This document shows, piece by piece, positions 8,437 through 57,469 of a stretch of 64,000 nt of DNA. The position numbers and the translations under genes were made by a program. The DNA lies in assembly GCF_006345805.1 (NCBI RefSeq), contig NC_043017.1:2728001-2792000 (forward strand). The letters are read 5' to 3'. How positions within the stretch are numbered: position 1 is the first letter of the stretch; every line of letters begins with the position of its first letter. Under the pieces are notes generated by a model. That model was given only the letters and a program-made list of their open reading frames with translations. It had not been told where the DNA came from and ran no database searches. The DNA comes from Octopus sinensis (lineage: Eukaryota).

Positions 8437-9129
8437 GGGTGAGAGAGATATGTGAGAAAAGCTGGCGTATATATATTTTCAATATTTGTCTTAGCACAGC
8501 AGTTGTGGAGGGAGTAGAATGAAAGATCCACGTTTTTAATCAGTGTTCCCTCAAACATAGCTAAGCTGTTGTTATGTGACAAACTTTAATTACCATTTCG
8601 GCGTTTGGGGTGGGTTGGGGTGGCGATGGTGGCATTGGTGTGGGGAAGGGCTGGGTTACCTAACTACCAGTGTATTATTAATTGTTCTTTGTTTCTCTCC
8701 AGCGAACTTGGAATTGGTTGTTGTGGTTATCTTTCTCGTTTTCTGACTGACTTTAATTACTCCATACTTATAGATGTACGTGTGTGTGTGTGTATGCATC
8801 TACACTGTACATGGGTGTGTATGTATACAAATATATGCATTTTTACAGATATATATACATACATATATTTATATACATTATCTACATATTTATATATACA
8901 CATTCCCACCTGCCAATCAGTGTATTAGCTGTTGGTCTTTGATTAATACAAGAAATCGACAAAATCATTCTAATTTGATGGATCATTGGTTGGGCTTGGG
9001 TGGGGGTGGGCTTTGTGTGGTTCCAGCACCAGTGCTTTTCTGGTTGGTTTGGGCTTGGGGTGAACTCCTTTTTTTACTTTAATAATTATTTCTATTACTT
9101 TTATCATCATCGTCATCATTATTATTACT

Positions 9130-9686: not shown

Positions 9687-10107
9687 TTGTTATTATTATT
9701 ATTATTATTATTATTAATTTTCACACATGCTGCATAGTATGTGTATACTCATTCACACATACACACCTTCATACACACACACACAACCACTTTTAATCCA
9801 TTCTTCCTGCTCTTCCCACTGTTGTTTGTGTGTGTTACAGTAACACACGTTTGTTTGTGTACACATACATATTTACAAACACACACACATACACACACAG
9901 ATTCAGCATTCACATCCATGTATGCATATTTCTGTCTCTTCCCTGTATGTGTGTGTGTGTACTTAGAAGTTGTATGACACAGCTGGATAGAAGACGTATG
10001 GCTCAGTTATGTTGTTGTTGATGTTCGCCTGTGTGCAGCAAGCAGAGGTAGGATCAAACAGTCCCAGCAACAATCCTTCTATCTTCCATCTGCACATGAA
10101 TCCATCA

Positions 10108-18648: not shown

Positions 18649-19040
18649 GAGTTTAATATGAGTTGATCAAGATGTAAAGTTTATAAGCAATATATACAGT
18701 GCTTATAAACTTTACCTTTGGATGGACTCATATTAAACTCTGTTGGACTTTTGGATTTTACTCAAAGGATATTGGAATATTACACATATATACCATTATG
18801 CCTATAAAACGGATTTATGAACTCAATAACCATACATATCTTACATCTATTTTCTTTCCTCCACCTCACTCTCTATTTGTATCACATCGAAACTAACTAT
18901 GACTTAATTTTTCCTCTCACACCGTCTCTGATGAAGGAATATTATTAATTAATATCCTAGAAACAGCTGTAAGACCTTCTATCTAAAAATGCTCTAATAT
19001 CTATACAGCCTTGGTATTTTATCTCATTACACAAAAAATT
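18649..19040 (+). mobile_element. Penelope-like pseudo-LTR remnant with 5' fold-back
   Basis: Inverted repeat 18649-18689/18700-18740 followed by a hammerhead motif at 18924-18975. Confidence 0.65.
18924..18975 (+). ncRNA. Minimal type I hammerhead ribozyme motif
   Basis: GTCT-CTGATGA-stem II (agg.atatta/taatat.cct)-GAAA-CAGCTG palindrome-GUA-AGAC; stem I GTCT/AGAC pairs. Confidence 0.75.
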
Positions 19041-19184
19041 CATATGTACACACGCTGACATAGAACCAACGTTGAACCCTTTATTCGCAATATTACCGAA
19101 TCTGGAACTTAACTGTGGTCTGTCTATAGCACTTATTCAGCATTACCTGACATCTTTGGGTCTCAATGGCACCATTATCTCTTA

Positions 19185-19950
19185 TATGTATATGTATATA
19201 TATGTGTATATGTATATATATGTGTATATGTATGTATATGTGTATATGTATATATATATATATATGTGTATATGTATATATATATATATGTATATATATA
19301 ATATATATGTATATGTATATATATGTGTATATGTATATATATGTGTATATGTATATATATGTGTATATGTATATATATTATATATGGGTTATATGTATAT
19401 ATATATATATATATATGTGTATATGTATATATATATATATGTGTATATGTATATATATATATATATGTGTATATGTATATATATATATGTGTATATGTAT
19501 ATATATATATGTGTATATGTATATATATATATGTGTATATGTATATATATATGTGTATATGTATATATATATATGTGTATATGTATATATATATATGTGT
19601 ATATGTATGTGTATATGTGTATATGTATATATATATGTATATATGTGTATATGTATATATATATGTATATATGTGTATATGTATATATATATGTATATGT
19701 ATATATATATGTATATATGTGTATATATATATGTATATATGTGTATATGTATGTATATATGTGTATATGTATATATATATGTGTATATGTATATATATAT
19801 GTATATATGTATATATATATGTATATATGTATATATATATGTATATATGTATATATATAAGTATGTGTATATATGTATATATATGTATGTATGTACGTAT
19901 ATATGTATATATATATGTATGTGTATGTATGTATGTATGTATATATATAC
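19185..19950. repeat. Expanded (TATATG/TGTA)n microsatellite abutting a SINE A head (19950-20108, minus)
   Basis: Directly visible; SINE A head acgatgggcttctttcagtt...cttaccactcagcc follows. Confidence 0.9.
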
Positions 19951-21106
19951 ACCGACATACACATACGATGGGCTTCTTTCAGTTTTCCTCTATCAAATCC
20001 ACTCTCAAGGCTTTGGTCAGCTCAAGACATTTGCCCAAGATGACACACACTGGGACTGAACCCGAAATCCTGTGGATCAGAAACAAGCTTCTTACCACTC
20101 AGCCGTGCTCACAAATGCGGTTTGAATGTGTCAAATGTGTTGGCTGTCAGTAATTACACACAGATTCCTTGTGTGTGTACGTATGCATGCGTGTATGTGT
20201 GTGTGTGTGGTTCCACTTATGTCTGCTGTTGTGTGCAACCTCATGCAAAAATATATATATATGTGTGTGTGTATGTATATATATATATACATATATATGG
20301 AAAGCGGACGCTAAATGATGATGATATATATATATATGTATATATGTATGTATGTATGTATATGTATGTATGTATATGCATGTATATGTACGTATGTATG
20401 TTTGTGTGTATATGTATGTGTGTATATGTATGTATGTATATGTATGTATGTATGTATATGTATGTATATATATTTGTGTATATATATGTATATATGTATG
20501 TATATATATTTATATGTATATATATGTATATGTATGTATATATATATATATGTATATGTATGTATATATATATATATGTATGTATATATATAGATGTATA
20601 TATATATATGTGTGTGTGTATACATGCAGCTTCAAATGAGACACTCGTTAGTTACATCGTTTAATATGATAATAATGAGCAACGTGTATTCTAGGTTCTA
20701 CAATGTAAGATAATCTTTGCATTTGCTGATGTTGTTTGTCTGAGAAATTTACAGATGCTGATCATTCTTCAGGTGAATGACCAAATTCCGACGGAGAGAT
20801 AACTTTCCGAAAGTTCTTTCTGGCATCGGCATTGTTATCGGTTAATGAGCATCCTTCTTGAGGCTGTATTTTCTTTTCTTTCTTTTTTTCTTGTTTTGCT
20901 TCACCTTTTACAAAGAATTCTGTCCTTGACACAGCATTAGGAAATCAAAAAATAGCAAGTATTTCTTAAGATTATGCATATAATAATACTTCTTCAGATG
21001 AAGAAGTATTGTGTTTGTGTATGTATATATATATACACATTTGTTGTGTGAGCATGTACTAGTATAAATATACATCCCTCTCATTCCCTCTCTCTCTCTC
21101 TCTCCC

Positions 21107-51026: not shown

Positions 51027-51858
51027 AATAAATAATTAATAGTAAAATAAAATAAAATCTAAATAAAACCTAACTTTAAAGTTGGGTGTGACCGGACTGA
51101 GTGAGTCATGCATTTTGTGTTGATCAACAAAAATACTAAATATTTCGATATTATTGTTGTTGTTGCTTTTTCTGTTGTTGTATTTACGCCCGGTGTTGTT
51201 GTTGTTGTTCTTGTTGCTACTGCTACTGTCGTTGCTGTGAATTCAGTAAAGAATTTATAATCTTTTTTTTTCCCTTTCTTTGTTCGTTCTTATTTTTCAA
51301 ATTTTCCTATGATGAATTGCTCTGACATAAGGTTATGATGTAAAATGTTAGTGCAATTACGCAACTGGATCCTAATTTAAAAATTTTAATTGAATTTAGT
51401 TGTTGTTTCTATAATTAAATTAAATGAAATTTTACTTTTCACTTGATCAGTTGTTATGCTGTGGTTCCATGTTGCAATTTAAGTTAAAATGGCAGAAAGA
51501 CTTCTGCTGGATTTATTTTGAGGGATAAAATTTCTATGGAGAATATAGTCATGGGAAGTTAACCTCGGGCAAGGGTGACACAGGGATTTTTTATTGCAAA
51601 ACTCTCCTTTACTGGAACTTGTACATTATTGTCAAAGTTATTGCCGTTAGTTGTGTTGATATGTCGCTTGACAGCTGTTTCAGACCTTGAGTGCAACCTC
51701 AAAATATTTTTACCCTCTAATATCTCGAGAAGATAGTTTATCATTGATCATGCATTTTGCAGCTTCAAAATTTTGATGATGCGATGGTGTATGTTACAAT
51801 GGCATTGAAGGATAGGTGTCATAGGCTGGATCTGTCTGGTTAATACATAAACTACAGT

Positions 51859-52812: not shown

Positions 52813-53787
52813 ATCTACTTGTTATTATTAATTTTGAATTAAAAGAAAGAACACACAAATGAAAAAAGAAAAAAATGAAGAAAATATCCCTTTCAGGTTT
52901 TCTTACTCTTGGACCATTCTATTGCCAAACAATCAGAGGAACTGCTTTGAGCTGTAATATCGAGATTCTTCCATCAAAGTATTCGACGCAAATGATTTTC
53001 TTTCGAAAAACTCATCAGTCTCGAACCAATAAAAGACATTTTAAAACATTCCTTTTTACTCAGCAAAAATGCCTGCCAGTCTGGTGTTGAAACAGCCGAA
53101 ACAGAAATATCCTGGTTAACTCAAGGTTTCTTTTAATCTTACAAAAGATTTGTCCTGAGCAATTTACGAATAATACACACATACATACGTGTGTACTCAT
53201 ATATGCCAATACACTATATAGATATTTGTGTGTGCGTGCTAGTGTGTGTGTGAGTGAGTGTGTTTGTAGGTATGTATATGTGTGTGTGAGGGTGCATGCC
53301 TGCGTGCACTTGAGCGACTGCCATCAAAAGAAAGGATAAATATTTACCACAAATCCGTTTATATATTCCGAGCAAATTTATCAGATTGATTCCATTTGCC
53401 ATAAATCTGCCGTAAACAGCGACCAAGCGTTCTTCAATTGCGTTTGACAAAGCTTCTGCAAGCATTTCCTCGCCTACACACGCACACACACACACATGCA
53501 GGCACATGCACACACACACATGCACATGCACACAAGTACGCACGCACAAATACGCGTATACAAACACGCACACACATAAACAGAGACACATACGCACACT
53601 CACACACAACTATACACACACACGCATAATCATTTTCTTATGTCGCACGCTTTCTCTCACTATATATATACACACAGATATATACATGTGTGTGTGTGTG
53701 TGTATAAATATACAATATATATATATATATACTGATAAATACATATGCGTGTGTGTGTGCGTGTGTCTATATCTGTGTATATACACA

Positions 53788-54786: not shown

Positions 54787-55009
54787 CCAATATATATATA
54801 TAATGTGAAATAGAAAGATGAATAATCTTGTTGCAGATTAATCAAAAGTTTAACCGATACCTTGGTAGCAAAAATCACAGCAGAAGACAGCACGGTTGGA
54901 GGTACAACCATATGGTGTTGCAAACCGTGCGTTTGGTGCGGATAATTGAATTTTAAGATTATTAGTGATTGAAGAAATGGAGTTGAACGAAGATTGAACA
55001 GAAATCGTT

Positions 55010-55104
55010 TATTTCATTCTACTACACGTGTTTCGAAAGGCACAATTACCAAATTCCGATTGAATAATGAGACCATATTGTGTCTTTCTCTTCAGGAAGA
55101 AATA
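55010..55104 (-). ncRNA. Type I hammerhead ribozyme motif (GUA site)
   Basis: Minus strand: CTGAAGA(55095-55089)-gaaagacaca...tgtgcctttc-GAAA-CACGTG-GUA (55025-55023); stem I imperfect. Confidence 0.65.
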
Positions 55105-55141
55105 AGAAATCCGTTGGAAAAAACAAAAAAAACGGATTTCC

Positions 55142-55229
55142 TATTTCTTCTGAAGAGAAAGACACAATATGGTCTCATTATTCAATCATTTTGGTAATGT
55201 GCCTTTCGAAACACGTGTGAGATGAAATA
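55142..55229 (+). ncRNA. Type I hammerhead motif with GUG triplet (probably inactive)
   Basis: CTGAAGA 55150-55156, stem II 55157-55166/55198-55207, GAAA 55208-55211, CACGTG, GTG 55217-55219. Confidence 0.6.
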
Positions 55230-55339
55230 AAACGATTTCTGTTCAATCTTCGTTCAACTCCATTTCTTCAATTCACTAATAATATATATAATATATATAT
55301 ATTATATATATAATATATATATATATATGTATGTATATC

Positions 55340-57130: not shown

Positions 57131-57469
57131 TCATATCTATATATGTATATATATCTATATATATATCTATATATATATATATTAATATATATATATATTA
57201 TATATATATAGCGTGTGCGAGTGTGTGTATGTATGTATATGTTATATATACAGGCCACACATCCATACCTATGGTTGCGTTGACAGTTAAATAGGGAATT
57301 TCGATTGAAATGCTACACACGAGAAAGATTCATCAGACGTTGAAATCTAACTTTACACTGAGACACGTATAGACACACACACACACACACATATATATAT
57401 GTATATATATATACAAATATATATATATATATATATACAGTGACTTTGCTGAGGTGGAGGTATGCAAAA

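Follow-up and report, generated by a model that had tools for sequence, protein, structure and literature searches.

A probable dead, 5′-truncated end of a Penelope-like retrotransposon in Octopus sinensis, with a minimal type-I hammerhead motif

The window analysed here, a 64,000-nucleotide stretch of the Octopus sinensis genome (contig NC_043017.1), very probably holds the dead, 5′-truncated pseudo-LTR end of a canonical Penelope-like element (PLE), a retrotransposon with a reverse transcriptase (RT) plus a GIY-YIG endonuclease at the C terminus, together with the family's minimal type-I hammerhead, for which weak cleavage at best is predicted. Positions 18695-19183 are one 5′-truncated copy of a repeat with more than 2,000 copies in the 2.7-Gb genome, and the locus has no evident function for the host. 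The features are as follows.

18649-18694, minus strand: inverted 5′ cap, the spacer-free reverse complement of the element's own first 46 nt (18695-18740)
18695-19048, plus strand: 5′-truncated 3′-UTR or pseudo-LTR segment of the PLE copy, identified by its matches to other copies, their variable 5′ ends and contiguity with the RT/GIY-YIG frame
18924-18975, plus strand: type-I minimal hammerhead motif, identified by sequence, genomic matches, dimer fold and a published descriptor
18929, plus strand: T at core position 4, a minority state where the family majority is C (in a CpG)
19041-19053, plus strand: microsatellite-like short junction (CATATGTACACAC), at which many copies stop and pass into (TA)n or (CA)n
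19054-19183, plus strand: leader segment, the start of the next unit (a partial tandem, hence pseudo-LTR), which lies directly upstream of the 5′ UTR and ATG in ORF-bearing copies
19183-19946, no strand: (TATG/TA)n microsatellite, tail or target site, found with TRF

The repeat family was delimited by searching all 2.7 Gb of the assembly (13,516 contigs). A 161-nt query around the motif returned 2,596 first-look candidates, of which the best 44 matches are 84-100% identical and represent the window's own place and at least 43 others; among the matches listed, the 40 covering more or less the full query have 93-97% identity. As query segments were moved in the 5′ direction, the first-look candidates fell from 2,596 to 492 and then to 164, which is the signature of 5′ truncation, and the copies have ragged, variable 5′ ends. 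The motif itself was counted with the pattern GTCTCYRATGA-N20-28-GAAACAGCTGTAAGAC, which fixes helix I, the core box (two of its letters being left as Y and R), the GAAA, the palindrome and the GUA-AGAC. This pattern has 2,199 matches in the genome (1,109 forward and 1,090 reverse) against 0 for the backwards control, and the motif is therefore not a chance occurrence. Several subfamilies are represented among the matches listed, distinguished by the length of helix II, by loop 2 and by the bases on either side of helix II (A..A, A..G, A..U or U..U). Between subfamilies, ~60 nt around the motif align at 77-82% identity and the flanks are unalignable, the signature of a constrained island, although the motif may have been conserved for some other role, such as being recognised by the RT.

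The identity of the family emerges from its longer copies. An upstream walk through overlapping copies crosses ~1.5 kb of non-coding sequence and then enters a decayed frame containing an RT-like box (GLYRDDALL), an (AAT)n run and a GIY-YIG-like box (VIYKCT..AIYIGST), in the order RT-(AAT)n-GIY-YIG. Hammerhead and RT share a strand and lie ~2 kb apart in two of these copies (L066 and L090). We aligned a protein profile of the family by hhalign with a Pfam RVT_1 + GIY-YIG element of the same genome, obtaining a probability of 96.2% (E = 2.7e-9) over 419 collinear columns that run from the RT core through GIY-YIG. Frame contiguity and this alignment together place the family among the canonical, endonuclease-bearing PLEs. 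Pfam scans of the family's own frames and of a related intact 960-aa frame returned neither RT nor GIY-YIG, so the assignment rests on the profile-profile alignment, the motifs and the architecture. An intact full-length master copy of the window's subfamily was not found, and a GIY-YIG family search across 30 loci gave no hammerhead motif of this kind and no similarity to the element, the 1.5-kb flanks used there possibly being too short. The related 960-aa frame (L103:2190-5072, minus strand) is ~40% identical to the family's RT and ends in a GIY-YIG-like box that follows a Cys-rich linker. It has no Pfam match even at E 10 and only four relatives in a large protein collection, which served as alignment rows only, and no simple-type hammerhead occurs within 2 kb downstream of it.

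At its 3′ side, the window copy preserves the junction between two units. Approximately 17 of 26 other copies end at 19041-19053, while eight or nine copies, the window's included, extend past the short TATATACACAC-like junction by another 130 nt, after which a microsatellite follows; most copies stop near 19048 and pass into a TA/CA microsatellite. The nature of the additional 130 nt is revealed by ORF-bearing copies. In one of them (L107), 102 nt of the segment, at 97% identity, are followed immediately by the coding frame's 5′ UTR and ATG, and another (L106) starts with its last 15 nt. Because it adjoins the 5′ UTR and ATG, 19054-19183 is the element's leader, and the window thus holds a unit junction, that is, a pseudo-LTR, with the hammerhead situated within it, 77 nt before the junction. 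Nearly all copies terminate in a TA/CA-type microsatellite, and both types of 3′ end (at ~19048 and at 19183) fall at TC(T)TATATA. The two alternative ends may have arisen by (TA)n target priming on two UAUAUA-like sites of the template. Long (TATG/TA)n arrays at 19183-19946 and 20324-20611 also give sub-threshold Rfam matches to mir-297, mir-466, mir-1277 and others, which are microsatellite artefacts.

In essence, 5′ truncation, partial tandem and inverted pseudo-LTRs and microsatellite-associated insertion are all found in this family. The same traits characterize canonical EN+ PLEs such as Penelope/Poseidon, Neptune and Nematis, which, in the sections of the published account drawn on here, have a GIY-YIG domain C-terminal to the RT, heavy 5′ truncation, pseudo-LTRs made of partial tandems, an inverted 5′-truncated copy beside the 5′ end, microsatellite-associated ends and a hammerhead within the pseudo-LTR (Craig et al., 2021; PMC8557442). 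The octopus family departs from that description in that its RT and endonuclease go unrecognised by Pfam models, and the window copy in that its inverted arm is only 46 nt long and does not reach a 3′ end (compare Craig et al., 2021).

A different origin would be that of a non-LTR retrozyme: not a truncated autonomous PLE but a short tandem repeat that is non-autonomous and multiplies by way of circular RNA processed by hammerheads. Animal retrozymes carry type-I hammerheads in non-coding repeats related to PLE pseudo-LTRs, their presumed origin in the portions of the literature consulted (Cervera and De la Pena, 2020; PMC7229834; bioRxiv 10.64898/2026.07.22.740005), and short direct pairs occur at two octopus loci. 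At the first, two identical canonical-core motifs (L013:1230-1273 and 1525-1568) lie in direct orientation 295 bp apart with (ATGT)28 between them, and may be a sister subfamily arranged as a short tandem or in a retrozyme-like manner; at the second, L014, a 237-bp unit is present in 2.2 copies. The latter array, however, is 98% identical and (TA)n-bounded and looks like a local duplication, and TRF found no unit-length array at L013 or at L015. In contrast to the retrozymes described in those parts of Cervera and De la Pena (2020), the window locus has one motif and no tandem array, and the copies are truncation products of a coding element, forming a 5′-truncation series that leads into the RT/GIY-YIG frame. 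We consider a retrozyme origin very improbable and read the copy as the truncated end of an autonomous PLE.

The 5′ end of the window copy is marked by a fold-back. The arms, 18649-18694 and 18695-18740, are 46 nt each, complementary at 39 of 46 positions and separated by 0 nt, and contain two perfectly complementary blocks, one of 15 bp starting at 18649 and one of 16 bp starting at 18674. The first-pass annotation had described inverted arms with perfect blocks of these lengths, and measurement bears this out, extending each arm to 46 nt. Across the window, 145 centres reach at least 39/46 complementarity at a gap of 0-10 nt, of which 144 are simple repeat and the sole exception is the cap at 18694/18695; ten mononucleotide shuffles produced 0 centres at the cap's score. 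The cap is private to one copy: nine other copies reach 18695, and in all nine the upstream sequence is shared family sequence and the window's left arm is absent. Together with the RT-(AAT)n-GIY-YIG frame in longer copies and the hhalign match, this absence corroborates the annotation's view of the locus as a Penelope-like insertion that is truncated and carries an inversion at its 5′ end. Two states common to both arms are unlike those of other copies, and the arms otherwise differ at 7/46 places, a combination that fits an origin of the cap at insertion followed by decay.

Such fold-backs are typical of the family. Among 29 copies sampled for covering 18972-19183, ~19 have a head-to-head inverted partner at the 5′ end, and these partners mostly extend to the 19048 end. 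In three copies (L124, L125 and L133) the partner is short, at 34-70 nt, and so resembles the window's. One copy (L090) has 1.09-kb arms, 98-100% complementary, that flank a truncated coding body. In the window copy, the cap would have formed during insertion, by the reverse transcriptase halting at 18695 and doubling back for 46 nt along the cDNA that it had made. Since both arms are the same segment without a spacer, this nascent-cDNA turn-back is preferred over L1-style twin priming, which would place neighbouring segments and not one identical segment in the two arms and is rejected here. Other inverted arrangements were seen at further copies. At L011, L014 and L094, the reverse complement of the leader's last 24-87 nt (equivalent to 19097-19183) abuts the truncated 5′ end, a second kind of 5′ inversion, drawn from the template's extreme 3′ end. 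Another family copy has, at its 5′ end, inverted arms of 229 nt (L063:7633-7861 / 8521-8749), 99% complementary with a 659-nt spacer, and this whole insertion is itself enclosed by the 57-nt inverted arms of an abundant repeat unrelated to it (L063:7579-7635 / 9842-9898).

Read without the family, the hairpin and motif might have arisen by chance, or the hairpin might be of the microRNA or MITE type, since sub-threshold Rfam hairpin matches occur to MIR8706 (31.6 bits against a gathering score of 95) and mir-276 (24 bits against 62). Both scores lie far under the gathering thresholds, the left arm duplicates sequence of the element itself and does so in this copy only, and the genomic motif count stands against an empty reversed control; the latter two observations refute this explanation, whose probability we put at close to nil. 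Elsewhere in the window, 54990-55250 is a long near-perfect palindrome, in which the hairpin 55066-55179 matches Rfam MIR7504 at 65.3 bits (gathering score 83). Each arm of it reads CTGAAGA ... GAAACACGTGTG, giving opposed hammerhead-like boxes. This is presumably the 55-kb motif from which the annotation had set the present locus apart as a second family, a separation that is plausible given that the 55-kb object is a different, palindromic fold-back element.

The hammerhead motif lies 185 bp downstream of the inverted arms. Its 5′ portion comprises GTCT (18924-18927), CTGATGA (18928-18934), an extra A (18935), helix II (18936-18958) and an unpaired A (18959), and its 3′ portion GAAA (18960-18963), CAGCTG (18964-18969), T18970, A18971 and AGAC (18972-18975), so that the GUA occupies 18969-18971, an arrangement identical to that originally reported from the sequence; the predicted cut is after A18971. 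The window copy reads CUGAUGA, GAAA and GUA at the core positions C3-U4-G5-A6-N7-G8-A9 ... G12-A13-A14 ... U16.1-H17. Three helices are arranged around this core with helix I open, which consists of the 4-bp GUCU/AGAC. Helix II can be drawn as nine positions with one A x C mismatch (family register), caused by a minority G-to-A change at 18938, or as 4+5 bp with a bulge (ViennaRNA fold). Helix III has only 1-2 bp, A-U and C-G around AGCU, and is stable only as an 8-bp intermolecular palindrome, for which reason a second motif is needed to make a dimer; no second (tandem or dimer) motif of the family occurs within the window. The minimum-energy fold of two molecules of 18920-18980 is a double hammerhead at -27.3 kcal/mol, compared with 2 x -9.0 kcal/mol for monomers, and the monomer fold energy is no better than that of shuffled sequence (z -0.73). 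In master elements, the hammerhead would act as such a two-motif dimer, in which the palindrome ACAGCUGU joins the motifs as helix III, and the dimer would process transcripts of tandem or pseudo-LTR copies by cutting after the GUA.

Other partial matches in the window were distinguished from the motif. The string CTGATGA-N6-36-GAAA matches eight times, against 1.19 expected, and accompanying helices were recognised only at 18924-18975. Such strings at 53001-53018 (minus strand; without flanking helices) and 57299-57336 (minus strand) lack the family's GAAACAGCTGTA box and therefore do not look like family copies. A match of GAAACAGCTGTC at 51670 (minus strand) was rejected as a copy of the motif, the upstream core box being absent.

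The motif closely resembles the minimal hammerheads (min-HHRs) of metazoan PLEs, described in the parts of the source used here as combining a short helix I (4-5 bp) with a long helix II, an additional base separating A9 from 10.1, and a helix III whose palindrome requires dimer formation (Cervera and De la Pena, 2014; PMC4209133). Here, the expected short helix I (4-5 bp in the class), long helix II (7-8 bp in the class) and unpaired base between A9 and 10.1 are all present, as are the palindromic 15.2-16.2 pair and loop 3 (CAGCUG, or ACAGCUGU with 15.1/16.1). The two systems share type-I topology with a 4-bp helix I and a helix II of 7-9 bp, the unpaired base at A9/10.1, the CAGCUG palindrome of pair and loop with a dimer expected, and a location near the end of an RT+GIY-YIG element whose thousands of copies are mostly solitary and truncated and often form opposed pairs, as far as those sections describe it (Cervera and De la Pena, 2014). 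They differ in three respects within the same compass. The window's subfamily has a majority core of CCGAUGA, a U4C substitution; its 10.1-11.1 pair is G-U, unlike the G-C of sister subfamilies (in a 20-motif sample, 11 are G-C, seven G-U and two other); and an unpaired base precedes G12 in every octopus subfamily, a feature of one row only in the text of the published Figure S3. This last base, A, G or U according to subfamily, follows 11.1 in 20 of 20 sampled motifs. The first-pass annotation was right that an extra A precedes the GAAA; this is no defect of the window copy, the base being family-wide and permitted by the published descriptor, whose supplement, in the part used, allows "a possible extra N11" before GAAA (PMC4209133).

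Core position 4 separates the window copy from most of its family. Among the 13 nearest other copies, the core box is CCGATGA in eight, CCAATGA in one and CTGATGA in four, two of the four being one duplicated locus. Otherwise identical exact 35-mers occur genome-wide 167 times with CCG and 30 times with CTG, and CCGATGA is present in almost all long-helix-II entries among the pattern matches listed. In a further set of 16 motif matches, 15 are CCGATGA and one CTG (these represent ~11 distinct copies, as several loci overlap). Contigs of four sequencing runs, whose kind was guessed, were used for family base frequencies only, with no starts, ends or informative joints in them; in these, C makes up 51-83% of contig depth at 18929. 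These data show that the subfamily's majority core is CCGAUGA and that the window's U4 is the minority state. The mark of CpG decay is the occurrence of TG and CA variants alongside a CG majority. A18938 is common to three near copies (L003, L005 and L009), all of which are CCG, and the window's T thus most likely arose in a dead copy; judged from these sequences, T18929 is most likely a CpG-to-TpG deamination that followed insertion. Sister subfamilies with a CCCTA or CCATA loop retain CTGATGA.

Several tests bear on whether the motif is active. At gathering score, Rfam detected nothing in the whole window, and around the motif no hammerhead was reported at E up to 10. Rfam likewise reported no hammerhead at four sister loci, even though these included canonical-core sister copies, and its negative result accordingly has little power for this class. 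The covariation check proposed in the annotation was run on helix II, with no signal beyond the shuffled control: across 20 motifs from several subfamilies, ~90-94.6% of cells are paired, as in the control, and one is compensatory, while helices I and III are invariant by construction because the collection pattern fixes both. The 5′ ends of copies show no accumulation at 18972, with 3 of 29 within 7 nt against ~2.5 expected, a weak test given that the sample was chosen for covering 18972-19183. Among the RNA runs on record, none contains the sequence, which carries no weight in either direction. Covariation, Rfam and the positions of 5′ ends therefore lend no support to cleavage. At the other end, genomic copies finish 77 or 212 nt downstream of the predicted cut, and since they extend at least 77 nt beyond it, their templates were uncut at the motif.

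Set against these results is the view that the window copy is a working self-cleaving hammerhead, whose transcripts through 18924-18975 would be cut after A18971. The canonical CUGAUGA...GAAA...GUA core with a 4-bp helix I in this copy, the double hammerhead as the two-molecule minimum-energy fold and the tolerance of the published descriptor for the extra base all speak for activity. Even a U4C core need not preclude it, as a natural U4C viroid hammerhead has lower in vitro activity yet is compatible with in vivo function, some activity being retained there according to the portion of the review consulted (Ambros and Flores, 1998, cited in PMC3088659). The substitution in that hammerhead is identical to the octopus one, but in the same portion of the review (PMC3088659) the viroid ribozyme is type III with tertiary contacts, while the octopus motif is minimal type I without recognisable loop contacts. 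Against activity, the window copy is dead and its canonical T a minority state attributed to decay, the G-to-A change at 18938 introduces the A x C mismatch into helix II, a helix III of 1-2 bp would need a partner motif that the window does not offer, and the monomer folds like shuffled sequence. PLE minimal hammerheads, dimers included, also cleave poorly in vitro, to go by the sections used (PMC4209133). The failure to match any Rfam hammerhead counts for little, sister copies having been missed as well. On balance, cleavage by this copy is unlikely, and the earlier description of the motif as intact-looking and as the best candidate here for an active ribozyme is not sustained, given the CpG-decay state of T18929, the change at A18938, the missing dimer partner and the lack of covariation. 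The reading we favour is that of a dead PLE end whose hammerhead would cut weakly, if at all.

The finding extends the established association of Penelope-like elements with minimal hammerheads to one further lineage of animals; in the text and supplement of the 2014 survey, as searched, there are no cephalopods, and "Octopus" has 0 matches in the supplement (PMC4209133). For genome scans it carries a caution, in that a perfect-looking core in a single repeat copy may be CpG decay and not the family state. The facts at the level of the family bear on what hammerheads do for PLEs. The majority U4C core, the 3′ ends downstream of the predicted cut and the absence of a 5′-end pile-up lean towards a hammerhead that is not needed at the 3′ end of the template. 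We tentatively suggest, as a possibility with the odds somewhat against it, that this Penelope-like lineage reached thousands of copies with a U4C master, in which case either C4 suffices in a two-motif dimer or self-cleavage is dispensable for retrotransposition. CpG decay would then "repair" the core to CUGAUGA in approximately one-sixth of dead copies, seeding potentially better ribozymes than the active element had.
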